Positions 5,726 through 62,021 of a stretch of DNA of 64,000 bases are shown one piece after another; position 1 is the first letter of the stretch; each line of letters begins with the position of its first letter. The notes beneath the pieces were generated by a model, which saw only the letters and a list, made by a program, of their open reading frames with translations, was not told the DNA's origin and made no database searches. The translations under genes and the position numbers were made by a program. Source of the stretch: an uncultured Bacillales bacterium (GTDB lineage: Bacteria > Bacillota_I > Bacilli_A > RFN20 > CAG-826); the NCBI GenBank assembly GCA_946403545.1, contig CAMJAG010000001.1:872-64871 (forward strand), in the 5' to 3' direction.

Positions 5726-6210
5726 AGATGTTTCTCCGCCTTAATGAGAATACGTTGATAAGTCTCAATAGTGAGTTTATCTCCCATCTCGTAGTCTAGT
5801 TCGTTTGTGAAAGCAAATATTACTTTGTCTTGGCAATTAATACCAATGAAATATCTTACATATACTGGATAGACATAAAGTCCATTCATGTAGCACATTT
5901 CATCACTTTTCTTTAGAAATTCCACTTCTTCTACAGGTTTAAGTCCACTACTATATCCTTTAAAATATCTATATCTTTGATTAATATCGTTATAAACGTT
6001 CATAAAGAAGAAGATAGCAAACCAAACAAATAAAACAGTGATAACAATTGCAATAATAAGTGTTGGGTAATATGCTTTCTTAGAGAAAATTACTAATAAT
6101 ACATCTGCAATAAGAACGATAGCGAAGACGCAAGAGAATGCTAAAGAGCATCTAAGGAGGTTAGATTTTGCTAATTTATATTCAGAATTTACGTCTACGC
6201 TATATTTCAT
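5722..6210 (-). CDS. hypothetical membrane protein
   Basis: 162 aa with two TM segments. Operonic. Confidence 0.45.
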   Translation of the reverse strand: MKYSVDVNSEYKLAKSNLLRCSLAFSCVFAIVLIADVLLVIFSKKAYYPTLIIAIVITVLFVWFAIFFFMNVYNDINQRYRYFKGYSSGLKPVEEVEFLKKSDEMCYMNGLYVYPVYVRYFIGINCQDKVIFAFTNELDYEMGDKLTIETYQRILIKAEKHL

Positions 6211-36631: not shown

Positions 36632-38314
36632 TTAGTTGCCTCCATGAACTGCGTCCACTGCTGCTACAATTTTTGCATCATCGTAGAAGTCATCATATTC
36701 CACTTTATAATCTGGGTCTAAACCATCCTCAATCGGAAGATATAAGTTCTTTCCGTTTTCCTTTTTAACATATCTTAATGTCATAGTAGATGAGATGGTT
36801 AATGCTGTTCCGTCCGCTAAAACGGTAGGCATAACAGCGCACATTCCACCACCAGATTGTTTGCCAATAATCTTTGCAATTCCTTGCTCTTTTACAATAG
36901 AAACCGCTAAATTTGCTGCAGAGAATGTATTTTCTCCCGCTAATATTGTCCAAGTGTAATCGTTATAAGCATCACCTTCATATTTGCCATCTTCATCAGT
37001 GTCAATTAAGAATCCTGCTCTTTCATAAGTGTTATTTAAAGTATTGTAAATAGAATAGAAAACATCATCATCTGTCATAAAGCCTAAGAATCTAATTAAG
37101 GCGGCAAGATTACCACCACCATTAAGTGATAAGTCTACAACAATATCTTTAACTTCATCATGGGCTTTAATTCTAGTCATGCAATATTGCATCAATTTAT
37201 ATGTATCATATTGCCATGCTGAAGCACTATTGAGTTGATCTTTAGTGCCTGTAACAAAGCTATCAAATGTAATAATTGCAGTATCTCCAGAGAATCTTAC
37301 AGGATTTCTTTCAGGATTAATTTCTGCAATATTTCTTTTAGCAGTTAAATCATTTTTTAAATTGAAGTATGTATTCCACTTTGTTCCTCTTCTAGCTAAC
37401 GGAACGGTTGTGGAATCATCTCTATCCATATAATAAGTTCCAAAATCCACTCTTGAGTGGAGATCGTTTAATGTTTTAAATACAAAGTCAGTTATTCCTC
37501 TATAGTTATTTGCACCAACAGGAGATGTAATTAACGCTTTTGTGTTTGCGTCAATATAATCAATAGCCTTTGTATATCCTTTAATTTCTTTTAGACCATA
37601 GAAATAATCTAATAAGAATGCTAATGAACTCAAAGTAGCGTTACTAACATCTTCAGGAATCTCAGTTCCACACATAGGAGTGGTAAGTTTAATTAAAGTC
37701 GTTGCTTGAGCATCGCTTACTTCTCCAAACGCTCCATAAAGTTTATCTCCATTAAAGAAAACATTGTAATAATTTTGACTACAGAAAAGTATATTAGCGA
37801 TCACTAAAGGCAGTAAAACCTTATTATTTTCATATTTAATATCAAATCCATAATCACTTAATTTAAAGTTAAGTTGTCTAATTTGAGAAGCGTCAGATTC
37901 ATCTTTATTTTGTTTAAAATTAGCACTATAGTCAGTGGATAAAGATGTCATTGCAATTATGTTAAAGAATTGGCTATCTCCACGAATAACATCATTTTCC
38001 CAATCAATCTCAATAGCGCCATAGATTAAGAATGACATCATCATCTTCTTTTCATTAATATCTTTTTTAATACTAATATAATCAGAAATTAAATATCCTC
38101 TTAAATCTTTAACAAACTTTGCAATATCTACATAAGGAACATTACCTCCATCAGGAAAGAATAATTTCATCCTCTTTGTAGTTATTTGAAAATCAGGTGA
38201 AAGATTTTGAAAATAATATGTCTTTGCATTTTTGTCTAATAATGAACATCCAGTAGCCGCTAGACAAGACGCTACTAGAGGTAATAATGTAAATAATTTA
38301 ATTCTCTTTTTCAT
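36632..38314 (-). CDS. lipoprotein, S41-family (tail-specific-like) peptidase
   Basis: Lipobox ATGC. S41 blocks VVDLSLNGGGN, TFSAANLA and GKQSGGG. Confidence 0.65.
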   Translation of the reverse strand: MKKRIKLFTLLPLVASCLAATGCSLLDKNAKTYYFQNLSPDFQITTKRMKLFFPDGGNVPYVDIAKFVKDLRGYLISDYISIKKDINEKKMMMSFLIYGAIEIDWENDVIRGDSQFFNIIAMTSLSTDYSANFKQNKDESDASQIRQLNFKLSDYGFDIKYENNKVLLPLVIANILFCSQNYYNVFFNGDKLYGAFGEVSDAQATTLIKLTTPMCGTEIPEDVSNATLSSLAFLLDYFYGLKEIKGYTKAIDYIDANTKALITSPVGANNYRGITDFVFKTLNDLHSRVDFGTYYMDRDDSTTVPLARRGTKWNTYFNLKNDLTAKRNIAEINPERNPVRFSGDTAIITFDSFVTGTKDQLNSASAWQYDTYKLMQYCMTRIKAHDEVKDIVVDLSLNGGGNLAALIRFLGFMTDDDVFYSIYNTLNNTYERAGFLIDTDEDGKYEGDAYNDYTWTILAGENTFSAANLAVSIVKEQGIAKIIGKQSGGGMCAVMPTVLADGTALTISSTMTLRYVKKENGKNLYLPIEDGLDPDYKVEYDDFYDDAKIVAAVDAVHGGN

Positions 38315-38408
38315 ATTGAAATTATTATACGATATCTGTATTTATTTATAAATAAGTAAGAGGACAAATCATGTCCTCACACTACTTATTGACATATATA
38401 TAAAATGA

Positions 38409-38965
38409 AAGAGCATTGGAACCCAGTGAAGTCATCTTGCTGATGGCTGGGGCCCAACCAAAAGAGAAGGATATTCGGGATACTGAATATCTAACAAGAC
38501 CTGTTTATCAGGTATTCCGGGATTAAAATACCGCTTTGGTTGGTGGCGCATAATGCTCTTCGATGTAAGTAGACACCCGAGTAGGCACTACAAGAGGCTC
38601 TGTAGCAATACATCCCACGATAAGATGTTAGTCTGAGAAACTAATATCTACGTTCTCAAAGAAAGTGTTTGGCTTGATGGTAAGCAATTACCTATAACTA
38701 CTTTGGTGGGCACTAGTAGGAGAATGCCAGCGAGTTTTGGATCTACGACAAGATAAAAAATATAGCTGAAGCTCTCTGAAAGTTGGAAGATGATGTAACT
38801 CTTCCCATGGTACGGTAGCAATACCCATTCCAGAAGTATTAGGGTCGCTCCCTCTTACTCAGCCTGGCGTGCATGTGTACGAAAAACAAATTAGAGTAAG
38901 TTATGTATGGCGAAGGTCATCAATGTACAAAAAAGGTGGATTCTTATGACTCCACCATTTTTATT
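38409..38965 (+). ncRNA. candidate large structured ncRNA (class unassigned; ROOL/GOLLD/OLE-scale)
   Basis: 684-nt gap with no ORF of 60 aa or more. Hand-counted G+C is 38-48% per 60-nt line, against about 22% in the adjacent gene. There are many nested helices, including 38409-38417/38552-38560 and 38454-38462/38535-38543. Several G-U pairs work only on the plus strand. It ends in a strong plus-strand terminator. The 5' end and the strand are inferred. Confidence 0.5.
38931..38965 (+). repeat. 35-nt direct repeat, copy 1 (terminator hairpin GGTGGA...TCCACC plus a T-run)
   Basis: AAAAGGTGGATTCTTATGACTCCACCATTTTTATT. Matches copy 2 at 33 of 35 positions. Confidence 0.85.
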
Positions 38966-38998
38966 TGTAGTATGAATGACACATGATAAAATGAATTC
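38965..38998 (+). promoter_or_regulatory. candidate promoter for a leaderless tandem-TIR mRNA
   Basis: TTGTAG (38965-38970), then 16 nt, then TGaTAAAAT with its -10 at 38987-38992, then 6 nt, then the ATG at 38999. No SD is present. Confidence 0.35.
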
Positions 38999-39829
38999 AT
39001 GAATAATGAAACAAATAAAAATGAATTAGAGAATGAGAAAGTTTATATTTTCATTTCGCATTCTCATAAAGATATAGAAAAAGTAAGAAAAATTAGAAAT
39101 TATTTAGAGAGTCTTGATTGTGAACCAATTCTTTTCTTTTTAAAAAGCAAAGATGATGAAGATGAGATAATTCAACTTATCAAAGACGAGATTGATGCTA
39201 GAGTTTGGTTTATTTATTGTAGATCTATAAATGCATCTAAATCTAAATGGGTTAATGATGAAGTAACATATGTTGAGCAAACAGGTAAAAACAACATAGT
39301 TATAGATATCGATGGATGCCTAGATGAAAATGGAGAATTAAAAAATAGCGTTAAAAATAAACTTAATGTCATTATTAACGGATTTAGAAACTTACAACAA
39401 TTGTATATTTCTTATTCACACAAAGACTCTGTTGAAGTTCTTCGTATTGTCCAGTTTTTAAAAAGATATGGTGTTGATTTGTTTTATGATGACATGACAC
39501 ATTTTGGATCAGATTGGAAACATTCTATTCATAATCAAATTGTTAAATCGCCATATTTTCTGGTTTTTTTAAGCAAACAATCCATTAATTCACATTTCAT
39601 TTATGATGAAATAAAGCTAGCACAATACTTTAATAAAGAAATAATTCCCGTAATTCTTTATAACAATATTAACGATTATTATTCAGTCATTGAATCAGAT
39701 GTTTTCCAAAAGAATTTTGCATACTTTTTAGTCTGTGAATTCGATACTTCTAGTGATGTTCAATTCAAAGTGTCCTCATTTAGACTGCTAAACACATTAT
39801 TAGAGCATTTCTTTACGGATTTTGAATAA
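38999..39829 (+). CDS. tandem double-TIR domain protein
   Basis: Two TIR-like units: VYIFISHSHKD...SKWVNDEV and LYISYSHKDS...SHFIYDEI. Each keeps the conserved Glu position. Confidence 0.7.
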   Translation: MNNETNKNELENEKVYIFISHSHKDIEKVRKIRNYLESLDCEPILFFLKSKDDEDEIIQLIKDEIDARVWFIYCRSINASKSKWVNDEVTYVEQTGKNNIVIDIDGCLDENGELKNSVKNKLNVIINGFRNLQQLYISYSHKDSVEVLRIVQFLKRYGVDLFYDDMTHFGSDWKHSIHNQIVKSPYFLVFLSKQSINSHFIYDEIKLAQYFNKEIIPVILYNNINDYYSVIESDVFQKNFAYFLVCEFDTSSDVQFKVSSFRLLNTLLEHFFTDFE

Positions 39830-39832
39830 AAG

Positions 39833-39867
39833 AAAAGGTGGATTCTCATGAGTCCACCATTTTTATT
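39833..39867. repeat. 35-nt direct repeat, copy 2 (bidirectional terminator between convergent genes)
   Basis: AAAAGGTGGATTCTCATGAGTCCACCATTTTTATT. 9-bp stem with an A-run before it and a T-run after it. Confidence 0.85.
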
Positions 39868-41083
39868 ATGTTCGAGTAACTGAGAGGCTAACACTCCAAA
39901 CATAATAGAACATACTTGATGCATTCGCCGTAGGATGGTTTAGATTTAGCATAGCTTCTTCTATAAATAATGCATCTGATTTAGGTACTTTAATTGAGAA
40001 ACTATCCAAATCCGCACCATTGTTACTTTCTAAATGTATCGGGGTTTTATATTGGTTATTGAGTATAAACGACCCATTGATCCAATTACATAACAGCAAT
40101 AATTTTCTACCATAGTTATAGATATTAATCGTATATGTAATGTATTCAGTTGAAGATTCTGCGATCCATTCTTTTAAGTTAAATGGAAGTTTGTACTTCA
40201 ATGATGCATTTGAGGAATAAGTGCTATTTATGGTTGCACTGTTATCTTCAAATGTACTTGTTACACGTAGGCCTGCATAACTCTTATTAAGATTTATATA
40301 TTTATATTCTTCTAATAATGCTTCAGTTCCTAAATAAAGTTTCATTGAAATAGGACTTATTTTTGCAGGTGCAGTTGAGATACAACCTTTTGGTCTAGAA
40401 ACAGTGAATTTAATTCCTTTTAATATCTCTTCTTTATCTAATTTGTACATTCTATTGAAGACTGTGTAGTCATCATTTGAACGGAAGGTTCCACTATCAA
40501 TTAAAGATATTGCAGTATCTAACCTATAATCAACCCAATTAAATGTGTTAATTCCTACTACACCTTCTTCTTTTTCATAGTGGCTGAATTTTATAGTCAA
40601 ATAACCAACTGATTCAGTGTGTTGGAGATAGTATTGATAGTCTTCACTAAGCTTTAATTCATATGATTTTGACTTATTAGAACAAGAGATGTCTACACTA
40701 GGAAAATTGAAGTCTATAATCTGAGCTTCATTAGTGTCCAAATAGTTTGCGTAAATGTTTTCTGGAAGTTCCACATTGTCATAAATTGCTTTGCCAGAGC
40801 GATCCACTAATTTCTTTGAATTTAAGTTTGGCTTTTCGAAACAACCCATAAAGAGTTTGTCCTTCTTCTCTGTAGGTTGATATTCGAAAGTATTTATGTA
40901 TTGTATGGTATTTACTTCACCATCGTTTGCAATAACATTAACTTCCTTCCATGGAATTGGTTGTGGCTTATAATCCTCATCTAAAATCGGACAATTTGTT
41001 TCCCCTTTCATAGAAAAGGAACATGCACTGATAGATAATAACGAGACTGCTGTTATGAGTATTAAGCTAATTTTTCTTTTCAT
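39866..41083 (-). CDS. lipoprotein, function unknown
   Basis: The ORF-track start at 41101 is a TTG inside the SD. The ATG at 41083 (MKRKISLIL...SISAC lipobox) lies 9 nt after GGAGG. Confidence 0.55.
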   Translation of the reverse strand: MKRKISLILITAVSLLSISACSFSMKGETNCPILDEDYKPQPIPWKEVNVIANDGEVNTIQYINTFEYQPTEKKDKLFMGCFEKPNLNSKKLVDRSGKAIYDNVELPENIYANYLDTNEAQIIDFNFPSVDISCSNKSKSYELKLSEDYQYYLQHTESVGYLTIKFSHYEKEEGVVGINTFNWVDYRLDTAISLIDSGTFRSNDDYTVFNRMYKLDKEEILKGIKFTVSRPKGCISTAPAKISPISMKLYLGTEALLEEYKYINLNKSYAGLRVTSTFEDNSATINSTYSSNASLKYKLPFNLKEWIAESSTEYITYTINIYNYGRKLLLLCNWINGSFILNNQYKTPIHLESNNGADLDSFSIKVPKSDALFIEEAMLNLNHPTANASSMFYYVWSVSLSVTRT

Positions 41084-41124
41084 AATTGAGATCCTCCTCA
41101 ATTACAAAATATCACGAAAATAGG

Positions 41125-41370
41125 TTAAATACAATATCTATAGAATAAAAAGAAAGACACCCCGTCAAGGATGTCTATTGCGGATACCTCGAAGATATCA
41201 GCGAAAGTATTGACTGTATCAAGATTCACTGTTCCTTCGTTTTCAATTCTGCGTAAGTTTCTTACTGAATATCCAACGCGGTCTGCTAGCTCTTCTTGAG
41301 TCCAGTTTCTACTTTTTCTTAGGTTCTTGATGGATGTACCAATCAAGCGTGAATCAATTAATGTTCTCAT
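41125..41370 (-). CDS. XRE-family helix-turn-helix transcriptional regulator
   Basis: NLRKSRNWTQEELADRVGYSVRNLRRIENEG. I prefer the ATG at 41370, which lies 8 nt after GGGAGG. The ORF-track start is 41433. Confidence 0.75.
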   Translation of the reverse strand: MRTLIDSRLIGTSIKNLRKSRNWTQEELADRVGYSVRNLRRIENEGTVNLDTVNTFADIFEVSAIDILDGVSFFLFYRYCI

Positions 41371-41455
41371 AACTACTACCTCCCAAATTGATCTGCTACC
41401 TATATTGACAGGTTTTCCTGAGTTTTGATTCACTAAGTAGTTTATGAGCGTATAT

Positions 41456-41484
41456 ACTTTAAATTATCCTACGATTGTTGTCAA
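41456..41484 (-). promoter_or_regulatory. candidate sigma-70-type promoter of the XRE gene
   Basis: On the minus strand: TTGACA (41479-41484), a 17-nt spacer, then TAAAGT (41456-41461). Confidence 0.4.
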
Positions 41485-41486
41485 CA

Positions 41487-41738
41487 CTAATTGTCAGAAA
41501 TTGATTCTGCAAGTTCTAATATTTGTACAAATGTTAAAGATTGAAGGTGTAGATACGCTTGAACAACAGCCAACTTATATTCAGTTCTATCTGTTGACCT
41601 AATAGCAATATCTCTAAACCTTCTAAATTCTACTCTTGTTTCTTGCTCTGTATCACTAAGGCATGTCATTACCATTTTATTAGTTGCTTCTAAAGTAAGT
41701 TGCCTCAAATATTTTTTCTTAGCCTCAACATCAACCAT
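41487..41738 (-). CDS. hypothetical small protein downstream of the TIR-methyltransferase gene
   Basis: 83 aa, predicted helical. Starts 8 nt after the upstream stop. Confidence 0.45.
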   Translation of the reverse strand: MVDVEAKKKYLRQLTLEATNKMVMTCLSDTEQETRVEFRRFRDIAIRSTDRTEYKLAVVQAYLHLQSLTFVQILELAESISDN

Positions 41739-41746
41739 ATAAATAC

Positions 41747-43099
41747 CTATTTCTTAAATCCTACACAAACAAAGCGGTTAACTGCGTACCAAAAATCATT
41801 TCTAGAGAAACGATATTGGAGTTGCGTTAACAAATCTTCCATTTCATTGAACTCTGCTTTAGTTTGCTCATTTTCGTTTGCGATTAATTGAGCTTTAAAA
41901 TAATTCAATCTATAAGCAAAGCTTACTTTATAAAGACCTAATTTCTCTTCATAAGACATATGAGATGTTTCTGTAACAGTGCAATGCATTTTAACTTTGT
42001 TAAATCCTTCATGGACTAACCAAGAATAAAGTTTTCTACCATTGTTTCTATCAGACATTCCTTCAAGAGAATAAGATTTCTTTAAGACTTTTTCTATAAG
42101 CTCATCATCTCCATAAGAAATCTTACTGCCATCATCACTACCTCTAACAATAATCATTCCGCCTTTATTCATAAGAGCCTTTAAATTCTCTAATGCTTTT
42201 TCAGGATTTGTTAGATGATGGAGGACTAAGAAACAAGAAACAACATCAAAGCCTTTAATGCCCTTTTGCTTCATTATTCCCTGCATTTCCTCCATAAATG
42301 TTGGACTTTCAATATTTAATTGATAGAAAGAGAACTTACTATTTTTATTATTTTTATTTGCTTGTTCAATAGCACTTTCACTAATATCGATTCCCACTAC
42401 TTTAGTGTATTTTGCTTTTCTAAAAGCTTGTCTAGTTACATATCCTTGAGCGCAACCAACATCTAGAACTGTGTAATTGTTTTTGTCTAAATACATGTCT
42501 AAAATGCGTTGGTTTTCATCATCATATCTAGATCCTTGGCTTTTTAATCTTTCTGATTCATTAGTGAAATCAAATTCATAAATAGACCATCTTCCTTTGT
42601 AATCAATGCAATCTTTTGGTCTTGGTCTAGAAACTAAAAACCTATTAAACAATCTCTTTTGATAATCATTTACATCAAAAACATCACCAATTGGTTCACT
42701 ATGACAATCTCTAATTGCGTCAATTTCCTTTGGTAACTTTTTTGGATAATTAACTTTATCTAAGAATAAAACTAGAATATTTAATCCTTCAGTTTTTAAA
42801 GCGGTTTCTATTTCTTGTCTAACCCAGTCATCTTTTTTAAATATTCTCTTAGAAAATGTATCTGGAGTTACAAGAAGAATAAAGTCTTTGGAATTATGGA
42901 TTGCATTAGTTAACTGAGGTGGAAACATACCACCTTGAATTGATACCTTATCAAAGAAACTTAGATAACCATTATCCATCAAATTTCTATATAAAAGATA
43001 CGTTGGATATAATCCATCACTTCTTCTATATGAAATGAAAACATCATATATAAAATCTTTTCTCTTAATTTGAGTGTTTTTATTAATTTCTTCAGGCAT
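41747..43099 (-). CDS. TIR domain fused to a class I SAM-dependent methyltransferase
   Basis: N-terminal TIR (DVFISYRRSDG...DDWVRQEIE). Central methyltransferase motif I VLDVGCAQG, then FDVVSCFLVLHHL and MIIVRGSDDG. SD AGAGGA. Confidence 0.7.
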   Translation of the reverse strand: MPEEINKNTQIKRKDFIYDVFISYRRSDGLYPTYLLYRNLMDNGYLSFFDKVSIQGGMFPPQLTNAIHNSKDFILLVTPDTFSKRIFKKDDWVRQEIETALKTEGLNILVLFLDKVNYPKKLPKEIDAIRDCHSEPIGDVFDVNDYQKRLFNRFLVSRPRPKDCIDYKGRWSIYEFDFTNESERLKSQGSRYDDENQRILDMYLDKNNYTVLDVGCAQGYVTRQAFRKAKYTKVVGIDISESAIEQANKNNKNSKFSFYQLNIESPTFMEEMQGIMKQKGIKGFDVVSCFLVLHHLTNPEKALENLKALMNKGGMIIVRGSDDGSKISYGDDELIEKVLKKSYSLEGMSDRNNGRKLYSWLVHEGFNKVKMHCTVTETSHMSYEEKLGLYKVSFAYRLNYFKAQLIANENEQTKAEFNEMEDLLTQLQYRFSRNDFWYAVNRFVCVGFKK

Positions 43100-43198
43100 A
43101 TTCAGTCCTCTTATTTATTAATTTTATAATAAAATAAAGAAAAATACTTTAATATGATAATATAAGAGTGAAGTATATTTACGTGAGGTATTAAACAT

Positions 43199-45580
43199 AT
43201 GTATCCTGAATTACTTGCTATTTTCATTATTACTGGAGTTGTTGAACTCGTTTTAATAGGTGTATTTTTTTATAACCTAATCAGATATAGATATCTTGGT
43301 AATAAATATTTTTACGTAACTGTAAGTGTATTAGTTCTTTTGATGTATTCAACATTCGTCAATAGATCATCAGATCTTTCTATTTCTATGTTTGGAAACA
43401 TAGTGTTTGACACTATTGCGGCAGCAGTAGGTAAAGTTGATACTGAAAAGATTTCTTGGCTGTTTTTACCGGGCGAATGGAATAAATGGCTAGTAATTTT
43501 CTACTTTATCGCCTCATATACAACATTCGCATTCTTATCCATCACAGTTATTCTTAACTTTGCAAAACTCTTCTTAAATGCATTTATTTTCTATAAAAGA
43601 CGAATTATAAATGGAGCAAATGTGTACTATTTGTTCACAGATTCTAGAAATGAAACAGTAATTCCTTTAGCCACTAAACTATTAGATGAAACAAAAGGTC
43701 GTAAAAACTCAGTTAAAGTTTTCGTTTCTAGAGCATCTTTAAAAACTCAAGAAGGTAATGAATTTAGAGATATGTTAGTGGGCTTAGGCATTCCTGTTCA
43801 AGCTGAAAAATTCTCATACAGGATGGCTAGAAAGATCTTTAATTCTAGATACTTCAAACTACATCTTTTTGATAAGCAACAATCGTTTATTTACTTACTT
43901 TTCTCAAATGACGAAACCACTACAAAAGTGGCAACTGATTTCAAAACAGCGATTCAAAAGAATCGTAAGTTTAAAAAAATTAACGACTTTGTAACTCTTT
44001 TAAAGGAAACAAAAGACAAAGATAAATTAGAGAAATTAAAAGAGAACTTTAATGAGAAAGAATATGATTTATTACAAAAAATCCAAATCTTTGTCACTTA
44101 TCAAGAAACAGATTTAGATATTCTCCATAACTTCTCTGGAGAGACATTGCATATCATGAATACTCTTTCTAAGTACGACATGATTGCTTCTAGATTTGTA
44201 TTTGATAATCCAATCTCTCAATTAGTGGACTTAAACAACATCAAACTTAAAGAAGACAATAAACATTTAAATGTTACACTCCTTGGTTTTGGTGTTATTG
44301 ATAGAGCAATATTTGAAAGAATGACATTCTCTTATCAACTTTATGGAGATAATATTAACAAAGTTAATTACCATGTTTTAGATAGAGATGCTGATTCTTT
44401 AATTAAACCTTATGTAAACGAATATACAGATAGAAATAACAGTGTTTATCTATACTCTATCGACTCCGCTTTCGATGGAGAAGATTTAAGACACTACGAA
44501 ACAATTGATAGATATATCTCATCATTGCAAAACGATCCAAACCGTTTCCAAGATGATGGTTTTGAAATCTTTGTTATTTCAGTCATAAACTCAAATAACG
44601 ATTTAAATATCGCGCTTAACTTAAGAAGAGCTATCTTAAAATACTTCAATGATAGATGTGAACAAGTTGTTATTTACGTCAGAGTTGCAGAAAGACTCAT
44701 TGGAGAACAATTCAGAGGTTCAAATCTTTCATACACATACGAAACTCTCTCTCATATTCACGAAGTAAAAGACTTCAATAAGAAATCTGATGTAGAGAAA
44801 GAAGCATACTTCAACTCATTCAAGGACGAGGAAGAAAGAAAAGCAGCAGAGAAAAGATTAATTAAAGATTTAAAAGCACCTATCATTCTCTTTGGTAATG
44901 ATGCAATTATGTCCACATATCTTGCTAGAGAACATAAATACTTCATGGGATTCGCTGAAAACGCTTGGAAATCCTACCAATTAGAACAAGCTTATAACAA
45001 TTATTCTGAAACTCAACTTGATAGATTATGGTTAAGACAAAATAAACAAGAAGTTAAAAATAACACTGATTATGTTCTTTCACTTAGAACAAAGCTAAAC
45101 TTATTTGGCTACAAACTAAATCTAAATAAACAAGAAAACCAATACTTAATGGTTCCTGGTGATGATGTTTCAATTCTTACTTCAGGTGAAAATGAAGAAA
45201 CATTCCTTGAAAGAACAAAACTTAAAGATGAAACTGGTGATGTTGCAAAAGTTCTTAAGATTGCTGATATGGAACATAACCGCTGGTTACAATCCAATAA
45301 CCAAAGATTTAGATATTTATCTAAAGATTACACAAAGGTCGAGGATCAAGAACTATTTGGAGTGAATAAATACACCAATGAAAAAGAAATCACAAGGAAA
45401 TATAACGACAATACACAACACATTTGTATGGTCACTAATGAGGGATTAAGAGACTTCTACAATTATGTTGGAAAGAAAAATCCTGAATATAAAGATGTCG
45501 CTTTAAAACTTGTGTACACAAACGATATTGTTCAGTTAAGAACGATAATCAAAAATGGAACAGAACAAAAGAATAAATAA
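43199..45580 (+). CDS. large membrane protein with Rossmann-like (GxGxxD) segment and weak C-terminal RyR-like signature
   Basis: Four or five N-terminal TM segments. VTLLGFGVIDRAI. C-terminal IADMEHNRWLQSN. SD GAGG. Confidence 0.5.
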   Translation: MYPELLAIFIITGVVELVLIGVFFYNLIRYRYLGNKYFYVTVSVLVLLMYSTFVNRSSDLSISMFGNIVFDTIAAAVGKVDTEKISWLFLPGEWNKWLVIFYFIASYTTFAFLSITVILNFAKLFLNAFIFYKRRIINGANVYYLFTDSRNETVIPLATKLLDETKGRKNSVKVFVSRASLKTQEGNEFRDMLVGLGIPVQAEKFSYRMARKIFNSRYFKLHLFDKQQSFIYLLFSNDETTTKVATDFKTAIQKNRKFKKINDFVTLLKETKDKDKLEKLKENFNEKEYDLLQKIQIFVTYQETDLDILHNFSGETLHIMNTLSKYDMIASRFVFDNPISQLVDLNNIKLKEDNKHLNVTLLGFGVIDRAIFERMTFSYQLYGDNINKVNYHVLDRDADSLIKPYVNEYTDRNNSVYLYSIDSAFDGEDLRHYETIDRYISSLQNDPNRFQDDGFEIFVISVINSNNDLNIALNLRRAILKYFNDRCEQVVIYVRVAERLIGEQFRGSNLSYTYETLSHIHEVKDFNKKSDVEKEAYFNSFKDEEERKAAEKRLIKDLKAPIILFGNDAIMSTYLAREHKYFMGFAENAWKSYQLEQAYNNYSETQLDRLWLRQNKQEVKNNTDYVLSLRTKLNLFGYKLNLNKQENQYLMVPGDDVSILTSGENEETFLERTKLKDETGDVAKVLKIADMEHNRWLQSNNQRFRYLSKDYTKVEDQELFGVNKYTNEKEITRKYNDNTQHICMVTNEGLRDFYNYVGKKNPEYKDVALKLVYTNDIVQLRTIIKNGTEQKNK

Positions 45581-45588
45581 CCTATGAA

Positions 45589-45614
45589 AAGCCATAGAAC
45601 TGGCTTTTCTTTTT
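45589..45614 (+). terminator. intrinsic terminator after the 793-aa gene
   Basis: AAGCCA (45589-45594) pairs with TGGCTT (45601-45606), followed by TTCTTTTT. Confidence 0.6.
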
Positions 45615-45632
45615 ACTTTACACTACAAATAC

Positions 45633-45645
45633 ACGCATAATGCGT
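45633..45645. promoter_or_regulatory. perfect palindrome ACGCAT-A-ATGCGT abutting a TATAAT box (candidate operator)
   Basis: Palindrome at 45633-45645. TATAAT at 45648-45653. The operon starts at 45695. Confidence 0.3.
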
Positions 45646-45694
45646 TATATAATGGATTTGTAGAAATACAAATATAGCAATGGAGAATTAGATT

Positions 45695-46618
45695 ATGATT
45701 ACAGAAATTCATAAGAATTATTCTGCTTTTCGAGAAATGTTGTTAGCCACAACTGCTTTAAGCAACCGTTCTAGTAAGAAATATGATGACGATTGCAAAG
45801 CAATCATTGATTTCATCGGAGAAGCATATGGTCTAGAAAAAGACCTCGTAGAATATTGTAAAAAGGTCATTTTAGATGAACTAGTTACAATATCTACTGA
45901 CCAAGATATCCGCGCTTTCGTAAATTCACATACCGCTGACAGTGAATTAGAAGAATTAGACTCTTTATTAAGCGCTAAATGTGATGTTATTGGAGTTATT
46001 AGAAACTTTGGAGAAGTTAGAAGTCCTCAATTAAGTGAGACTTGGTTTGACTATAGTCATAGCAATCCATATTATCCAGAAATTAGATATCAACAATTAT
46101 CTATCGCTGCTTCCACAGGTAATGTAGTAGCAAATAAGATCGTTGGTATTCTTTCTGTTTTAGGTATTGGATGCGAAGCTACTAGAGAAAAGGTTCTTTC
46201 TGGAGTTTATAGACTTAGACAATGCGCTATTTGGGGAGACATTTCTTCTCTAATTATGATTAGACAAGTTTATAGAATCTTAGAAATGAAAGAACAAGTA
46301 AAACTCTATGATGAATTAGTGTCATTAGTACCTTTCATGAAAGAAGGAAGAACAGTAATTCCTCAAAGAATTGCAGAGAAAATCTCTAGAGAAGCAATAG
46401 AAACATTCGCAATTATCTGTTCTATTAAACAAGACATTATCTTAAATCAACATAAGTTCTACATAGATTATTCATTCGTTGAAGTTATGTTACTTAAAGA
46501 AGTTGATTACTATGATAAACTCCACTTCATTAATAAATATGACGCTCAAGAGTGGAAAGAAGTTACTAACTCATCATTTAATCCAAATAAGAAGATTGGA
46601 TTTAAGATTGGAGAATAG
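45695..46618 (+). CDS. helical repeat protein (Sel1/TPR-like?)
   Basis: 307 aa. The segment AASTGNVVANKIVGILSVLGIGCEATREKVLSGVYRLRQCAIWGD resembles Sel1-like repeats. SD GGAG. Confidence 0.35.
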   Translation: MITEIHKNYSAFREMLLATTALSNRSSKKYDDDCKAIIDFIGEAYGLEKDLVEYCKKVILDELVTISTDQDIRAFVNSHTADSELEELDSLLSAKCDVIGVIRNFGEVRSPQLSETWFDYSHSNPYYPEIRYQQLSIAASTGNVVANKIVGILSVLGIGCEATREKVLSGVYRLRQCAIWGDISSLIMIRQVYRILEMKEQVKLYDELVSLVPFMKEGRTVIPQRIAEKISREAIETFAIICSIKQDIILNQHKFYIDYSFVEVMLLKEVDYYDKLHFINKYDAQEWKEVTNSSFNPNKKIGFKIGE

Positions 46619-46621
46619 ATT

Positions 46622-48586
46622 ATGAAAAGAAGACCATATTCTGAACAAGTATCTCAAAAATACATTGATCAAAATCTTGAAAACACTCAAATAATGTCCT
46701 TCCTTGAATATAAAGGTAAAGGCTACGCTAAATACTTATTTGATGATTTAGCAAAAACTGATATCAAAGGATTCCCATTCTCTAGTGATTTTGTATCTTC
46801 TAAAGGGAAATCATATTCCTTTATTGATTTTGAAAATCTAAGTGATAAAGAAAAAGCGGATTGTAAACTTAGATTCTTCTATTTACCTAATTATCATGAG
46901 TTATATATCGGTACTACTGGTTCTGGTAAAACTACAGGATGTATTGAACCACAAATCAGAGCGATATCCACTCAAAAGAATAAAGCTAACTTATTTATTA
47001 CTGACCCTAAAGGTGAGTTATTTGAACATAATGGTAAATACTTAAAAGACCAAGGTTATAACGTATTTGTTCTTAACTTTAGAAACTTAGGTAGAACTCA
47101 TACATGGAATCCACTTAAAGAAATGTATGAAAAACAAATGGAATCTCTCACTATTGGAAAGAATAGTAAGAAATGTAATTGTCCAGTAGATAAGTCACTA
47201 GCGTTAATGTCTGAAAAGAGTAAATATCAAGGCACATATATTGCTTATAAACACATGGCATTTGCAACACAAGAAGACTTTGATAAATACGTGAATATTG
47301 AAACTTATTTAAATAAATCCAAAGTTTCTTCATTAGTTAACCAATTATGTGACTGTATCTTTAGTGAAGATAAATCCACTACAGATAGAACTTGGAGTGA
47401 TGGTGCTAGAGGATTATTCCATGGTATTTTATTGTCCATGTTAGAAGAAGCTGTTTTACCAGGAAGTAAGTTTAGCGAACAACATATGACATTAAAGACA
47501 GTTAACGATATCTTCAATTTAATTAGAGAAGGTAGCGAAACTCGCGATTCATATGGAGATCACTACACTAACGAAGAAATGCATGAGAAGATGGTAGACT
47601 TCTTGCATGGTAAATCATCTATTTGTATGAGCAAGTTAAATAATATTATTAAGACTGCTCAAACAACGAGAAAAGGGTTTTTATCAACATTCTTATCCAC
47701 TACTGAAAAATGGATGCAAGGTCACATCTATCAATTGACAAGTCATACATCTATTTCTCTAGAAGATAATGAACATCCTTGGGCGGTATTTGTATCCACT
47801 AGAGACTATGATAAATCAGATAATGTTATCGCTGGTTTATTCATTGACTGGGTATATAGACAATCTCTACAAGCTGTTGAAGAGAAACGTAAACTCGGTT
47901 TAGAACCTAGACCAATTCACTTCTTATTAGATGAATTCGCTAACATTCCAAGAATCCCTGACTTTGATAATAAGATTGCTACTGCTAGAAGTAGAAATAT
48001 GTGGTTCCACTTATTCGTTCAATCTTATGATCAATTAGATTTAATCTATGGAGAAGAAACAGCCTCTATTATCGTAGATAACTGTAACCAACAAACATTC
48101 TTAGGTTCTCAATCTCAAGAAACTAAAGAAAGATTCTCTAGAGAATGTGGTAAAAAGACTGTTACATCCTTAGAAGGTGTTATTCATGGTGAAGTTAACG
48201 ATGTTGTAGAAATCCCAGTTGTGCCTATCACAAGTCTAGATCAAATCAAACCTGGTGAAATGTACACTAAACGTATTTATTCTCCAATATTAAGATGTAG
48301 CTTTATCAGAAGCTATCAATGCGCTCAACAAGGTATCTTTAAAAACTTCTGGAATAATAAAGCGGAAGAAGAACTTATTCCACTTAACTATGTTATTCCT
48401 GATGATTTAGAACATTCTTATTTACCAGTATTAAGCGCTATTGAAGTAAGAAGATTATGTCCACCTAGACCAAGAAATCCTCGTAGTAGAGTTCAATACG
48501 AAGATGAAGACATGGAAGCAGAAGATCCTGAAGACTTTGAAGACTTCTTACATGAAGTTCAACTTAAGATGAAAGGAAAGAAGTAG
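46622..48586 (+). CDS. soluble VirD4/TraG/TraD-family (type IV coupling protein-like) P-loop ATPase
   Basis: Walker A GTTGSGKTTG. FITDPKGE. Walker B-like HFLLDEFANIP. Also FHLFVQSYDQL. No N-terminal TM segments. Acidic C-terminal tail. Confidence 0.7.
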   Translation: MKRRPYSEQVSQKYIDQNLENTQIMSFLEYKGKGYAKYLFDDLAKTDIKGFPFSSDFVSSKGKSYSFIDFENLSDKEKADCKLRFFYLPNYHELYIGTTGSGKTTGCIEPQIRAISTQKNKANLFITDPKGELFEHNGKYLKDQGYNVFVLNFRNLGRTHTWNPLKEMYEKQMESLTIGKNSKKCNCPVDKSLALMSEKSKYQGTYIAYKHMAFATQEDFDKYVNIETYLNKSKVSSLVNQLCDCIFSEDKSTTDRTWSDGARGLFHGILLSMLEEAVLPGSKFSEQHMTLKTVNDIFNLIREGSETRDSYGDHYTNEEMHEKMVDFLHGKSSICMSKLNNIIKTAQTTRKGFLSTFLSTTEKWMQGHIYQLTSHTSISLEDNEHPWAVFVSTRDYDKSDNVIAGLFIDWVYRQSLQAVEEKRKLGLEPRPIHFLLDEFANIPRIPDFDNKIATARSRNMWFHLFVQSYDQLDLIYGEETASIIVDNCNQQTFLGSQSQETKERFSRECGKKTVTSLEGVIHGEVNDVVEIPVVPITSLDQIKPGEMYTKRIYSPILRCSFIRSYQCAQQGIFKNFWNNKAEEELIPLNYVIPDDLEHSYLPVLSAIEVRRLCPPRPRNPRSRVQYEDEDMEAEDPEDFEDFLHEVQLKMKGKK

Positions 48587-48587
48587 T

Positions 48588-49133
48588 ATGGCTAACGATA
48601 ATTTTGAAGAATTATATAAACAAGGAATTATAGTCATCACTACTGGTATAGAAGATATGGATGTTACTAGTAACATCATCTTATCTCTTCTTAATTGGAA
48701 CAGAATTGATCCAAAGAAAGAATTACAACTCTATATCTCTTCAGTATCTGGAGACTACCTAAATGTCCTTTCTATTTATGACGCTATCCAATCAATTAGT
48801 AATCCAATTTCAGGATATTGTATTGGTTTAGTTGGTAGTTGCGCTGCACTACTTTTAGCGGCGTGTAACAAAGGTAAACGCTACATTTTAGAGCATAGTC
48901 AAATTGCTTTAAGAGAGATTTCTGGCATTATTCCTGGTGGAAGTAAACAACAAACAGAAATCGAAATTCTCGCAAACGAATTAGCGTCTCAAAGAGAAAC
49001 ATTTGAATCTCTTCTTTCAAAACATACAGGTCAATCCGTTGAAGAAATACACCACCTTTGCTATGAAAACACTTATTTAACTCCTGAAGAAGCTATTAAA
49101 AAAGGCTTCGTAGATAAGATTGTGAGGAAATAA
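48588..49133 (+). CDS. ClpP-like (S14) subunit, predicted catalytically inactive
   Basis: Aligns by eye with ClpP. Ser is kept (GLVGSCAA), but His is replaced (IALREI versus IHQP) and Asp is replaced (YENTYL versus ERDRFL). Confidence 0.6.
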   Translation: MANDNFEELYKQGIIVITTGIEDMDVTSNIILSLLNWNRIDPKKELQLYISSVSGDYLNVLSIYDAIQSISNPISGYCIGLVGSCAALLLAACNKGKRYILEHSQIALREISGIIPGGSKQQTEIEILANELASQRETFESLLSKHTGQSVEEIHHLCYENTYLTPEEAIKKGFVDKIVRK

Positions 49134-49135
49134 TT

Positions 49136-49648
49136 ATGGATAACAGAATTATTACTTTAAATGGTGAAATCAACGAAGGAAGCGCGATGAAAGTTATTCT
49201 TTCATTACTTCAAATGGATGCTGAAAATAGAAAACAACCAATATATCTATATATCAACTCTCCTGGTGGAAATATTGTTCATGGATTAGCAATATATGAT
49301 GTTATGAATAACATATCCGCTCCGGTATATACAGTATGTAATGGCATGGCAGCATCGATGGGTAGTTTCTTACTCTCTTGTGGTGCTAAAGGACATAGAT
49401 ATTGTTTAAAACACTCTCGTATTCTTATCCATCAACCACTTGTCTATAACAACTATGGAAGAATGATTGAAGAAAGCGAAGCTCAACAAATCGCCGCTAA
49501 TTTAAGAAAAGATAGAGATAAATTAGAACAAATCATGGCAGACAATTCTGGTAAAGACATTAAAGTCTTCCATAAGGATTGTGAAAGAGACCATTGGATG
49601 AGCGCTCAAGAAGCTCTAGACTATGGTCTAATAGATAAGATTATCTAA
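49136..49648 (+). CDS. ClpP-like (S14) serine protease subunit, catalytic triad intact, N-terminal axial region missing
   Basis: YINSPGG, GMAASMG (Ser), ILIHQP (His) and CERDHWMSAQEA (Asp). It starts at the position equivalent to RVIFLTG of canonical ClpP. Confidence 0.7.
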   Translation: MDNRIITLNGEINEGSAMKVILSLLQMDAENRKQPIYLYINSPGGNIVHGLAIYDVMNNISAPVYTVCNGMAASMGSFLLSCGAKGHRYCLKHSRILIHQPLVYNNYGRMIEESEAQQIAANLRKDRDKLEQIMADNSGKDIKVFHKDCERDHWMSAQEALDYGLIDKII

Positions 49649-49650
49649 GA

Positions 49651-49680
49651 AAAGAGGAAGTCCTAGACTTCCTTTTATTT
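49651..49680. terminator. bidirectional terminator shared by the convergent operons
   Basis: GGAAGTC (49656-49662) pairs with GACTTCC (49666-49672), flanked by an A-run and a T-run. Confidence 0.65.
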
Positions 49681-50433
49681 CACTCTATTAAGTATTAACT
49701 CAAGTGTTTCTTGGTTATTTGCAACCACTAATGAATCGCTACCAAATTCGTATTCTTTTTTATTGATGGTTTTATAAACCATTCCAGCTTCTTTTATCAA
49801 TAAAAGACCTGGTGCTATATCCCATATGTAATTGTAGTAGCAGATATATGCTTGTGCTTTTGATGTGGCTAATGTAGTAAAGTCTACACAAGCCGCTCCT
49901 AAAAGTCTCGTTTTAAGGAAATTCCCTTGTAAATCCTTCATTAATTCAAATTGTTTATCAAATGAAATGGTTTTGTTATCTTTATAAAAATCACTAGATA
50001 ATAAAACTCCATCTTCATGTTTAATATCTTTATTTACTTTAATAGGTTTTCCATTAAGGAAAGCTCCACCATCTTTCTTAGCAAGATATAACTCATCCTT
50101 ATATGGCAAATAGATTATTGATAACACTACTTCTTTCCTTTGGAAAACCGCTAGTTGAATACCACAAAGTTCTATGCCCATTGAATAGTTACAAGTGCCA
50201 TCAAGTGGATCGATAACAAAGGTTAGTTCATCTGTTAGTGGTTCGTTTTTACTTTCTTCTGCGATTATTTTTGCTTGAGGGAATTCTTTTTTAATAGCGT
50301 TAACAAAATAATCATTAAGTTCTAAATCCGCTTCTGAGAGTAAGTCATTAATAGATTTATGTTTAATTGATTTATGTTGCTTAAAGAATATGTCTTTTGA
50401 AGATAAAACTAGTTGTTTTAAATACTCTTCCAT
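49675..50433 (-). CDS. inositol monophosphatase / CysQ-family phosphatase
   Basis: Motifs IDPLDGTCNY and WDIAPG. Starts 4 nt after the TIR-STAND stop. Confidence 0.75.
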   Translation of the reverse strand: MEEYLKQLVLSSKDIFFKQHKSIKHKSINDLLSEADLELNDYFVNAIKKEFPQAKIIAEESKNEPLTDELTFVIDPLDGTCNYSMGIELCGIQLAVFQRKEVVLSIIYLPYKDELYLAKKDGGAFLNGKPIKVNKDIKHEDGVLLSSDFYKDNKTISFDKQFELMKDLQGNFLKTRLLGAACVDFTTLATSKAQAYICYYNYIWDIAPGLLLIKEAGMVYKTINKKEYEFGSDSLVVANNQETLELILNRVK

Positions 50434-50437
50434 GCGA

Positions 50438-53284: not shown

Positions 53285-53966
53285 GTACTTTTTCCTCTAA
53301 AGCAATGTTATAACCCGCTTTCTTGCCTTCATTTAATGTTTCTTCATTTGCTAAATGCATAAGAGTAATTTTCTTTCTCTCTTCCATATTGAAGGCGTTA
53401 TTTAATACTGAAATATGAGTATGTATCATCGCATTAAGAGAAGTTGTAACTTCATGATACATTTCATCTATTTTTCCTGATTTAAGTTCTCTAACTGCTC
53501 TATCAAGTAGTTCAGATGTATCTCCTGAATAGTAGAAATTAATTTCTTTAGAATATACAAAATATGCATAACTACCAGGAATATGTGGAACTTCAACAGG
53601 TTCCACTTTTAAATCTTTGATTAAAGAGTAGTCATTATATATTTCAAAATCAAAATCTAAACCAGTTAATTGGAGTAGTTTTTTAAGATTATCTTTTAAA
53701 GGATAGAAGACTTTTACCGTCTTTTTTGAGAAGAAATGAATCCAATATAAGAATGGTTCAAGGCTTCCAATATGATCACTATGAAGATGGGTAATTAAAA
53801 CAACAATTTCATCAACATCATCTAAAAGATGAAGTGCTAAAATCTTGTCACAAATTTTCTCGCCCATATCAAAAATATACAATTTGCCATTTTGTTTAAA
53901 ATAAGCACAATTGTTATTTGTGAAATAGTTAAAAGCGGCTCCTACACCTAAAAATTTTAAATACAT
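53277..53966 (-). CDS. metallo-beta-lactamase-fold hydrolase
   Basis: HxHxDH motif as ITHLHSDHIG. Overlaps the TIR-STAND start by 8 nt. Confidence 0.75.
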   Translation of the reverse strand: MYLKFLGVGAAFNYFTNNNCAYFKQNGKLYIFDMGEKICDKILALHLLDDVDEIVVLITHLHSDHIGSLEPFLYWIHFFSKKTVKVFYPLKDNLKKLLQLTGLDFDFEIYNDYSLIKDLKVEPVEVPHIPGSYAYFVYSKEINFYYSGDTSELLDRAVRELKSGKIDEMYHEVTTSLNAMIHTHISVLNNAFNMEERKKITLMHLANEETLNEGKKAGYNIALEEKVHG

Positions 53967-60797: not shown

Positions 60798-62021
60798 CTA
60801 TTTCTTATTTTTCTTAACCTCATCAAACTTCTCTTTCATAGTAGGATTACCATAGGTAAGTTTTCTGATAGTTAAGTCTTGTAGCTTGTCGTTAGCGAGT
60901 CTTAAGTTATTATCTGCGCCTAAGAGATTTTCTTTGATCTTTAAGAGTTTCTTAATTGTGTTATCGATCTCTTCAATAGCAGTGTTGAACTTATTACTTG
61001 CTTGATTGTAGTTGTACATAAACTTATTTTGGAAATCAGTAAGTTTATCTTCAAATGTAGTAATATCAATGTTTTGTTCTTTGATGACTTGTAATTCGTT
61101 TTTATAATTAGCAGCGTTCTTAGCAGCGTTATAAAGTAAACCGATAATTGCCATAAAGCTTTGAGGTCTTACCACAAACATCTTTGGGAATTTATGTGAC
61201 ACATCCACTATTCCAGCGTTATATAAGTCACTGTCTGGTTCTAAAGTAGAAACTAAGACTGCATATTCACAACCTTTCTTATTTCTATCTTCATCAAGTT
61301 TCTTAAAGAAGTCTTCGTTTTTATGTTTAGTAGCAGTTTCATCTGCTTCGTTTTTCATTTCAAACATAATGGAAATGAATTCCACTCCTTGATCAGTGAA
61401 ATCTCTAAAGATAAAGTCTCCTTTAGTGCCTTCATTAACTTCATTATCCTTTTCAAAGTAAGCATTTGGATAACAAACATTTCTATACATTTCAAAGGAG
61501 TTTTTACAATGTTGTTCTAAAGTTTCACCAAGCATTTTAGTGGATGATTTAGTCTTTAAATCCCTGTAAAACTCAATTGTTTCATCTTTCATCTTAATTT
61601 CAGCAGCGTGTTGATTCTTAAGATTTTGTTCTTTAATTTTATATTCGTTTTCTTTGGAATTAAGTTCACCTTTAAGCTCTACGATTTGGAGGTCTTTTTT
61701 ACTAACAGCTTCTTCCACTGCATGTTTTGTTTCATTCTTAGCAGCGTTTAATTCACCTTGTAATTTAGCGAGTTCAACTTCTTTTTGGCTCTTTAAAGAT
61801 TGAAGCTCACTATTAAGTTTATTAATCTTATCTTCAAGTTCTTTTTGACCTTCTTGCTTTGCAAGTTTAAGTTCTAATTCTTTTTGTCTTTTAGCTTCTT
61901 CAAGTCTTCTATTTAATTCTTTATTAAATTCATCATCTTTAATTTGAGATAGTAATTCTTTATAGACATTTTCATCTACAGTAAATACTTCTCCACATTT
62001 AGGACATGTAACTTTTGCCAT
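60798..62021 (-). CDS. DUF2130-like protein (N-terminal zinc ribbon, long coiled coil, C-terminal nuclease-like core)
   Basis: [20 protein letters not shown], then Lys/Glu-rich coiled coil, then GDFIFRD...FEMKNE. Confidence 0.6.

Follow-up and report, generated by a model that had tools for sequence, protein, structure and literature searches.

ROOL RNAs are a described family of large noncoding RNAs (ncRNAs) of about 520-660 nt, with an average of 581 nt (PMC5737381, PMC5643018, PMC12286853). In Ligilactobacillus salivarius, ROOL is encoded on a megaplasmid, is more abundant than 16S rRNA and very stable, and is dispensable in the laboratory (PMC5643018). According to cryo-electron microscopy published in 2025, ROOL alone forms a D4 homo-octameric hollow cage of about 28 nm: the monomer is flat, and eight copies assemble protein-free through kissing loops and A-minor bridges, with a variable linker lying inside (PMC12286853). 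The cage is also described by Ling et al., as summarised in PMC12515178, and its assembly has been established for the env-120, E. faecalis and CAG:227 ROOLs (PMC12286853; in summary form, PMC12515178). ROOL is one of the few natural RNAs known to build a protein-free cage larger than the ribosome. No function, partner protein or regulator of ROOL is reported in the literature searched, in which nothing relevant was found that links ROOL or GOLLD with defence, TIR or helix-turn-helix (HTH) proteins. In this work, comparative genomics and covariation analysis were applied to a stretch of 64,000 nt (the window) from an uncultured Bacillales bacterium (assembly GCA_946403545.1, contig CAMJAG010000001.1), in which a region free of open reading frames (ORFs) is almost certainly the gene of a ROOL RNA, a large self-folding ncRNA on the plus strand with its own transcription unit. 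As a further member of a described family, this RNA is not new in itself, and the window copy adds little as one more member. What appears to be new beyond the known ROOLs is the linkage of its subclade to an XRE-type HTH regulator, an operator-like palindrome and non-phage, defence-rich neighbourhoods; the value of the locus lies in this regulator link, as a lead on ROOL function.

The region occupies a gap of 684 nt (38315-38998) between an S41 peptidase gene (36632-38314, minus strand) and a tandem-TIR gene. The original prediction, made by inspection of the letters, had described the gap as G+C-enriched and free of ORFs of 60 or more amino acids, and had proposed a large structured RNA in the size class of ROOL, GOLLD or OLE. 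The description is accurate: the longest ORF inside the gap has 57 amino acids, and the G+C content is 42% over 38398-38938 vs 32.8% in the whole window and 20-22% in the first lines of the TIR gene. The window was scanned against Rfam 15 at gathering thresholds, which gave two matches only, a tRNA and RF03087 (ROOL), the first of the families that had been named. The ROOL match spans the full model (1-574 of 574) on the plus strand only, with a cmscan score of 187.6 bits vs a gathering threshold of 99.1 (E = 1.4e-40). In a permissive rescan of 38000-42000 at E <= 1, there was no competing family; the L20 leader appeared at chance level only (E 0.84), and the covariance models of GOLLD, OLE, HEARO and raiA gave no match. 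The matched length is 541 nt and the predicted transcript (~38413-38965) about 550 nt, both within the range of the family. The plus-strand sense had been proposed from four G-U pairs extending stems, all of which are present, and it agrees with the folding energies: none of 100 shuffled versions folds as well as the plus strand (z = -3.27), which also outdoes the minus strand (z = -1.82).

ROOL relatives were gathered with DNA patterns made from conserved ROOL blocks. The first 5' and 3' patterns were too strict (4 and 3 viral loci), and a looser 3' pattern gave 64 loci in bacterial assemblies, with one genome per species, beside 7 loci from IMG/VR. Rfam scoring identifies each of the seven IMG/VR loci as a ROOL, and almost all genome loci are matched by a profile made from the window copy together with six viral ones. 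Blastn with the ROOL region returned no match in phage or plasmid collections. In nine genome loci, the ROOLs share 70-79% identity with the window copy over ~520 nt; these loci come from metagenome-assembled genomes of Anaeroplasmatales, Erysipelotrichaceae, 'Bacilli' and 'Bacillales', obtained from rumen and gut samples. Judged by its closest loci, the window probably stems from a Bacilli/Erysipelotrichales-like organism of the rumen or gut. The window and these nine loci make up the 10-sequence alignment A2, from which the consensus fold was computed with RNAalifold and on which the helices were counted.

Of the 124 pairs in the consensus fold, 81 show compensatory changes; the window copy forms standard pairs at 122 of the 124. 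The molecule is closed by helix P1, in which all 7 pairs vary among relatives and 5 have changed on both sides (GC:4 AU:3; CG:7 UA:2). A long-range helix (38548-59/38893-38906) connects the 5' and 3' halves with 12 pairs, 10 of them varying (UA:6 CG:3; CG:5 AU:2 UA:1). Both helices are standard throughout in the window. Seven helices had been drawn by eye in the original prediction, and all seven are complementary in the window, with 5-10 pairs each and one G-T pair in two of them. Five belong to the real structure: 38454-62/38535-43, 38470-76/38485-91, 38431-36/38442-47, 38623-32/38640-49 and 38785-89/38801-05 have 78-100% of their cells paired in A2, with compensatory changes in most pairs. 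The other two, 38409-17/38552-60 and 38854-60/38894-900, compete with the long-range helix and were rejected. The former had been taken for the outer helix of a nested arrangement, which is not native: it is 52% paired, its strands belong to the covarying P1 and long-range helices, and the true closing helix is P1. The latter shows zero compensatory change, and the columns of its 3' strand covary with 38556-59.

Within this frame, the 5' domain comprises a hairpin (38422-27/38446-51), an inner stem (38431-36/38442-47), a long helix (38452-62/38535-47), a hairpin with the loop GGGAUACU (38471-78/38483-90), a variable hairpin at ~38500-38513 and the stem 38518-20/38531-33; AACCCAGUGAAG and GGGAUACU are its conserved blocks. 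The central domain consists of 38573-84/38698-709, 38585-88/38665-68, a hairpin with a GCAA tetraloop (38601-04/38609-12), the hairpins 38624-31/38641-48 and 38679-83/38688-92, and a conserved CUAUAAC. The loop of one of its hairpins forms a pseudoknot that is paired in 93% of cells, vs 32-48% when the partner is slid along the alignment. Two of its pairs switch jointly, from UGAGAA/UUCUCA to UAGGAA/UUCCUA, in loci L019 and L047, and the Rfam ROOL consensus has the complementary UGGCA/UGCCA at the same sites. Three pseudoknots are predicted for the ROOL family; in the window copy one was located, and it covaries.

Between the central and 3' domains, a linker of roughly 27-70 nt is unconserved in sequence among relatives and has conserved flanks. 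Its place appears to match that of the disordered linker within the cage in solved ROOL structures (PMC12286853), of which it may be the counterpart. The 3' domain is formed by 38785-90/38800-05, 38806-09/38872-75, a second GCAA hairpin at ~38815-24, 38830-33/38864-67 with 38835-44/38850-59 (the GGGUCGCUCCC loop region) and a GAAG-loop hairpin (38908-11/38916-19); GGGUCGCUCC, CUCAG and GUAUGGCGAAGG are invariant or nearly so in relatives. The 10-mer GTAGCAATAC, previously noticed as occurring twice, has exactly two occurrences in the 64 kb, at 38602 and 38815. Both copies are hairpins with GCAA (GNRA) tetraloops, relatives keep GNAA loops at these places, and the stem of the first hairpin covaries. 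A role of the 10-mer as a functional repeat was therefore rejected in favour of two GNRA-loop hairpins.

The RNA gene would be a transcription unit of its own, bounded by an upstream block that ends at a palindrome and by an intrinsic terminator. The strong plus-strand terminator expected at 38935-38965 is present there, with a GGTGGA/TCCACC stem followed by a T run; it is bidirectional in form, and a simple terminator scan missed it because its loop is bulged. On the other side, conservation upstream of ROOL stops abruptly at the palindrome GGACAAATCATGTCC, and the sequence farther upstream is unrelated among relatives, whatever gene lies there. In nearly all clade members the order is the palindrome, 13 nt, TTGACA, 6 nt, a -10-like box (TATACT, TAAACT or TATAAT in relatives), ~6 nt and P1. 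From this order we infer that the -10 box is 38401-38406 and that transcription starts at ~38413. TTGACA at 38389 was rejected as a -35 element, given its 6-nt spacing and the fact that a 17-nt spacing would place the start within P1. It resembles a third half-site of the palindrome (GGACA / TGTCC / TGACA) and has the same position in relatives.

The palindrome, GGACA-N5-TGTCC, has a single exact match in the 64 kb and is centred ~44 nt 5' of the predicted ROOL start. Its arm changes in L088, L096, L102 and L106 are uncompensated, so that it is more likely a DNA site than an RNA hairpin. Its being an RNA hairpin or a mere terminator of the S41 gene is disfavoured by these uncompensated changes and by its retention whatever gene lies upstream.

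The candidate for a protein that reads this site is encoded downstream. An XRE-family HTH gene on the minus strand, with a core of ~70-81 amino acids (81 from the likely true start at 41370), encodes the only window protein with homologues adjoining related ROOLs. In 6 of the 10 closest genome loci (L065, L036, L047, L015, L058 and L029), an HTH gene 51-74% identical to it is convergent on ROOL, and its 3' end abuts or overlaps the ROOL 3' end. An alignment of the HTH proteins was then used to search JGI and ENA metagenome contigs, which yielded 39 loci at >= 63% identity. In 33 of the 39, the HTH gene is directly followed by ROOL, encoded on the opposite strand, usually after a gap of 11-60 nt. 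In the six others, the contig continues beyond the HTH gene for 26-947 nt: at most 37 nt in three, 286 nt in one, 623 nt in one and 947 nt in L098. The 623-nt case is the window-like L072, where ROOL would lie ~2.2 kb on. ROOL was found beside none of 12 more distant HTH matches (<= 56% identity); the plasmid collection held only generic XRE proteins of < 47% identity, and the phage collection no homologue.

The palindrome follows the same distribution. All 22 metagenome loci whose upstream sequence reaches 70 nt or more have it at the same distance from ROOL, as do five genome loci with the HTH gene (L015, L029, L047, L058 and L065). L019 carries it with one mismatch, and its contig stops before an HTH gene could appear. 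The palindrome is absent from the remaining ROOL loci, except for one off-site match in L044, and it was found wherever the HTH gene is present and the site checkable. In L096 and L104-L107, the palindrome also occurs ahead of the HTH gene, at most 160 nt from its start.

The palindrome, ROOL and the HTH gene make up a conserved module of ~1 kb, whose 3'-3' junction receives cargo genes. The small XRE-type HTH protein would bind GGACA-N5-TGTCC and control ROOL transcription, which may start at ~38413 from the -10 box at 38401-38406. The position of the palindrome near -44, together with a good -10 box and no normal -35 element, would suit an activator, although repression is also possible. The cI protein of phage lambda at PRM exemplifies such a class II activation geometry, with an XRE-family HTH protein bound ~42 nt upstream of the start.

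Several side observations concern the HTH gene. In L029, L036, L058, L078 and others, its mechanical ORF runs into the antisense of the ROOL 3' end with an overlap of 40-110 nt; because of this overlap, the convergent HTH and ROOL transcripts would overlap or share one terminator. The conserved HTH leader gave no Rfam match (38000-42000, E <= 1). Its apparent 5' end, GCUCAU, complements the start region AUGAGC, and an anti-Shine-Dalgarno segment (e.g. CUACCUC) complements GAGGUAG. One pair covaries (ACUCAU with AUGAGU in L082 and L090), and switches of the anti-Shine-Dalgarno/Shine-Dalgarno pairing in L088 and L108 were seen by eye. The leader thus looks like an element that sequesters the translation start. 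A 15-nt complementarity between ROOL (38481-95) and the HTH mRNA (41263-77) was rejected as chance, being found only in the window and L073. In L102 (6518-6582, minus strand) and L103 (4013-4077, minus strand), there is a decayed second copy of the ROOL promoter and the first ~65 nt, with a degraded palindrome. It lies 1.7 kb from the intact ROOL, beside a 432-amino-acid ORF, possibly a transposase, that is present twice in L102 (402-1712 and 5064-6362).

A number of points weigh against the identification of the RNA or against its proposed control. The window copy has the lowest Rfam score among the ROOLs scored (187.6 vs 215-363 bits for the seven phage copies), and only 107 of 159 pairs are standard in the raw cmscan alignment. 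According to the clade alignment, the latter figure is due to mis-registration in the A/U-rich outer helices and not to decay; the long-range helix, for instance, is mis-registered by cmscan and scores 5/8. The start, 3' end and abundance of the window RNA are predicted, and cage formation by this subclade is extrapolated from the solved relatives. The promoter is odd, with a near-invariant TTGACA only 6 nt from the -10 box and no -35-like element at the usual distance. A terminator scan scores the palindrome as a minus-strand terminator of the S41 gene, and a double role is possible. Binding of the HTH protein to the palindrome is pure inference from the arrangement of the sequence. The linkage of HTH and ROOL could reflect shared ancestry in one family-level lineage and not function, since the DUF2130 gene is also syntenic in 8 loci.

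The proposal that the locus belongs to a prophage or to an island of phage origin, where ROOL would serve the phage, for example together with phage tRNAs, appears highly improbable. All seven IMG/VR ROOLs are indeed located in tRNA islands, in phages of 36-183 kb (three contigs < 85 kb), a tRNA-Ala is found 6.6 kb from the window ROOL, and a VirD4-like coupling protein (46622-48586) points to mobile DNA nearby. However, a scan of 40 window ORFs gave no domain of a phage structural, integrase or lysis protein, and the flanks are formed by metabolic and defence-type genes. The window is chromosomal, its metabolic genes including those for phosphoglucomutase, a sugar ABC transporter and cardiolipin synthase-like and cysteine synthase-like proteins. 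The tRNA-Ala is the only tRNA in the window, and there is 1 tRNA in the 42 clade loci, compared with 12 of 55 other genome ROOL loci that have tRNAs; the phage collection gave no blastn match to the ROOL region and none to the HTH protein. The missing phage or tRNA-island context does not disqualify the RNA as a ROOL, because the location in phages or prophages near tRNA islands is frequent in the family but not obligatory, and its discoverers report that it also occurs outside prophages. One of the phage tRNA islands with a ROOL copy (L005) additionally carries a skipping-rope RNA (RF02924, 43.8 bits) at 5993-6103 on the minus strand.

The proximity of the tandem-TIR gene invites another explanation, in which the RNA is an antitoxin or regulator of this gene, similar to a type III toxin-antitoxin system or a leader. 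The RNA, the terminator and the TIR gene follow one another on the same strand, and the terminator is separated from the TIR start by 33 nt in which no promoter was recognised, so that the gene may be expressed by read-through from ROOL. In three relatives, the place directly after ROOL is taken by another small ORF, which has a good ribosome-binding site. The likeness to type III systems, also drawn in the original prediction, fails on the lack of tandem repeats: no array was found in 38300-39000 (Tandem Repeats Finder, minimum score 30). Moreover, 38966-39832, precisely the segment of the TIR gene, is missing from the metagenome contig L073, which is otherwise 92-96% identical to window positions 38059-41738. 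In the window, this gene is bracketed by a 35-nt direct repeat formed by the two terminator copies, while L073 has a single copy at the junction. The TIR gene is therefore a cassette that differs between strains and enters or leaves by recombination at the terminator; the single-copy junction of L073 marks a recent gain or loss.

The gene content of other loci agrees with this. A phmmer search with the three TIR proteins of the window (E <= 0.1) gave no match to any of the 362 ORFs that lie up to 4 kb from ROOL in 70 other loci. In two Pfam censuses, of 125 and 107 neighbour ORFs, the 25 most frequent families do not include TIR; the genome loci were represented by one of three batches, and with 25 families considered a single TIR match per batch is possible. 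In all, a TIR homologue was detected beside none of ~110 other ROOL loci. ROOL is moreover a stand-alone RNA in phages and plasmids. An antitoxin role is therefore largely refuted already, and we regard it as slightly less probable still than a phage function. The ROOL/HTH 3'-3' junction is an insertion place for cargo, here TIR and orf411, so that the TIR gene would be incidental to ROOL and not its partner; any read-through would be opportunistic use of a strong promoter and not a conserved design. This corrects a tempting misreading of ROOL and the TIR gene as a pair.

The least credible explanation, to which we give practically no weight, is that the region is a decayed protein gene or a functionless spacer with chance helices: two of the seven helices proposed by eye are window-specific chance complementarities, as is the 15-nt match between ROOL and the HTH gene, but no ORF exceeds 57 amino acids, the covariance model is matched over its full length (E 1.4e-40), 81 pairs show compensatory changes among relatives 70-79% identical, and conservation ends sharply at the unit boundaries.

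Table 1. Coordinates of the ROOL gene, its structural parts and the neighbouring features in the window
Feature	Position	Strand	Remarks
ROOL RNA (Rfam RF03087)	38398-38938	+	cmscan match
P1, 5' strand GCAUUGG	38413-38419 pairs with 38920-38926	+	closes the whole molecule
5' domain	38422-38547	+	covariation in relatives
Long-range helix	38548-38559 with 38893-38906	+	connects 5' and 3' halves
Central domain	38573-38709	+	consensus fold, invariant blocks in relatives
Pseudoknot	loop UGAGAA 38634-38639 with UUCUCA 38653-38658	+	93% of cells paired
Variable linker	38724-38772	+	inside helix 38719-23/38773-77; alignment columns ~346-392
3' domain	38785-38919	+	consensus fold
Palindrome GGACAAATCATGTCC	38362-38376		extended GAGGACA-N5-TGTCCTC 38360-38378; candidate HTH operator
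Promoter-proximal block	38389-38406	+	TTGACA 38389-38394, 6 nt, -10-like TAAAAT 38401-38406
Intrinsic terminator, first 35-nt repeat copy	38931-38965	+	A run, GGTGGA...TCCACC stem, T run; predicted ROOL 3' end
Tandem-TIR (ThsB-like) gene	38999-39829	+	Pfam TIR_2 twice and ThsB_TIR; PADLOC ThsB
Second terminator repeat	39833-39867	+	94% identical to 38931-38965; shared with the 3' end of orf411
orf411	39866-41101	-	downstream of the HTH gene; homologues only in L072 and L073
XRE-family HTH gene	41125-41370	-	HTH_3, E 4.8e-11; mechanical ORF reaches 41433
HTH promoter and ~90-nt leader	41371-41470	-	conserved across 19-34 loci

The cargo at the ROOL/HTH junction is variable: most loci have none, five have a small ORF, L073 has orf411, and the window has orf411 together with the TIR gene. 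The small ORF (80-118 amino acids) starts with MK..KSKAAYTNKWL, has a strong ribosome-binding site and lies in the slot of the window TIR gene (L019 6824-7066, L065 2033-2389, L015 6370-6579, and, on the minus strand, L099 1262-1573 and L109 160-408); it has no match in Pfam or NCBIfam. Likewise, orf411 has no match in Pfam, NCBIfam, PADLOC or PDB. The tandem-TIR protein has a weak, below-threshold match to DUF4062 (E 8.6e-4), a domain whose members, in a 2026 preprint, are reportedly TIR-like NADases in an anti-phage system.

The genes around ROOL encode three TIR-domain proteins (the tandem TIR, a TIR-methyltransferase and a TIR-STAND NTPase), a VirD4-like ATPase, two ClpP-like proteins and a metallo-beta-lactamase-fold protein. 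Between the HTH and DUF2130 genes, 41747-53966 is a defence-island-like block with a fusion of TIR and an S-adenosylmethionine-methyltransferase (PADLOC mad2-like), two large ORFs without assignment (793 and 307 amino acids), a VirD4/TraG-like ATPase (mad8-like), the two adjacent ClpP-like proteins, an inositol monophosphatase-like protein and a TIR and STAND NTPase protein of 948 amino acids; the metallo-beta-lactamase-fold protein in this block has a sub-threshold match to the anti-Pycsar protein Apyc1. Eight relatives have a DUF2130 gene upstream of the HTH gene, in most cases as its immediate neighbour. The window homologue of the DUF2130 gene (60798-62021, 74% identical) lies 19 kb off, so the TIR/VirD4/ClpP block looks like an insertion. 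Neighbours of the module in genome loci include HEPN, TnsA-like and PD-(D/E)XK nucleases, the DarT-associated NADAR and HipA. In metagenome loci, they include methylases of the C5, N4/N6 and Dam types, DpnII, R.Pab1, GmrSD, HNH and ResIII nucleases, DUF4143 ATPases, ADP-ribosylglycohydrolase and Macro domains. The clade neighbourhoods thus look like defence-island territory in a census that had no background control and in which some loci are near-duplicates.

On these grounds, we tentatively consider, as a possibility with the odds clearly against it, that ROOL in this gut and rumen lineage of Bacilli is host-encoded, not cargo of a phage, and is switched by a dedicated XRE protein via the palindrome, as part of a 1-kb module that sits in defence islands and serves as a landing pad for defence genes. 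The cargo would be the TIR gene here, and HEPN, restriction-modification and ADP-ribose-processing genes elsewhere. If true, this host-encoded role would put ROOL cages in phage-host conflict and would give a first genetic handle on their function.

Among the known systems, Thoeris consists of the TIR protein ThsB and a ThsA effector (SIR2 or Macro-type with a SLOG domain). The window resembles it in having a neighbour gene with two TIR domains that match ThsB profiles. It differs in that no ThsA-type effector was recognised adjacent, ThsA-like domains being found neither in orf411 nor nearby in Pfam, NCBIfam, PADLOC and PDB searches, and in that linkage between the TIR gene and ROOL is not seen in other genomes. 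Type III toxin-antitoxin systems of the ToxIN type share the order of RNA, terminator and protein gene on one strand; their antitoxins are short tandem repeats processed by the toxin, whereas the window has one 550-nt fold without repeats and a dispensable downstream gene. GOLLD resembles ROOL as a large ornate RNA that forms a cage by itself and is found in phages as well as in non-phage regions, but it is unrelated in sequence and fold, exceeds 800 nt and forms a 14-mer. With lambda cI and PRM the locus shares an XRE-type HTH gene near a palindrome that lies ~44 nt upstream, a good -10 box and no recognisable -35 element. Unlike in lambda, the putative target is an ncRNA gene, and the putative regulator gene is convergent and not divergent.

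The closest relatives are the known ROOLs themselves (env-120, Enterococcus faecalis, Firmicutes CAG:227 and the L. salivarius long ncRNA). The window RNA agrees with them in its full model match, the P1-closed multi-junction fold, the pseudoknot, the conserved loop motifs, the variable linker, the size of ~540-550 nt and a low-G+C gut or rumen Bacillota host. It differs from them in being a divergent copy (187.6 bits) outside any phage, prophage or tRNA island, and its subclade differs by features not found in the ROOL literature searched, namely the link to an XRE-type HTH gene and an upstream palindrome, with many neighbours of restriction-modification or defence type. If the regulator link holds, the signal of the HTH protein would tell when cells make the cage.

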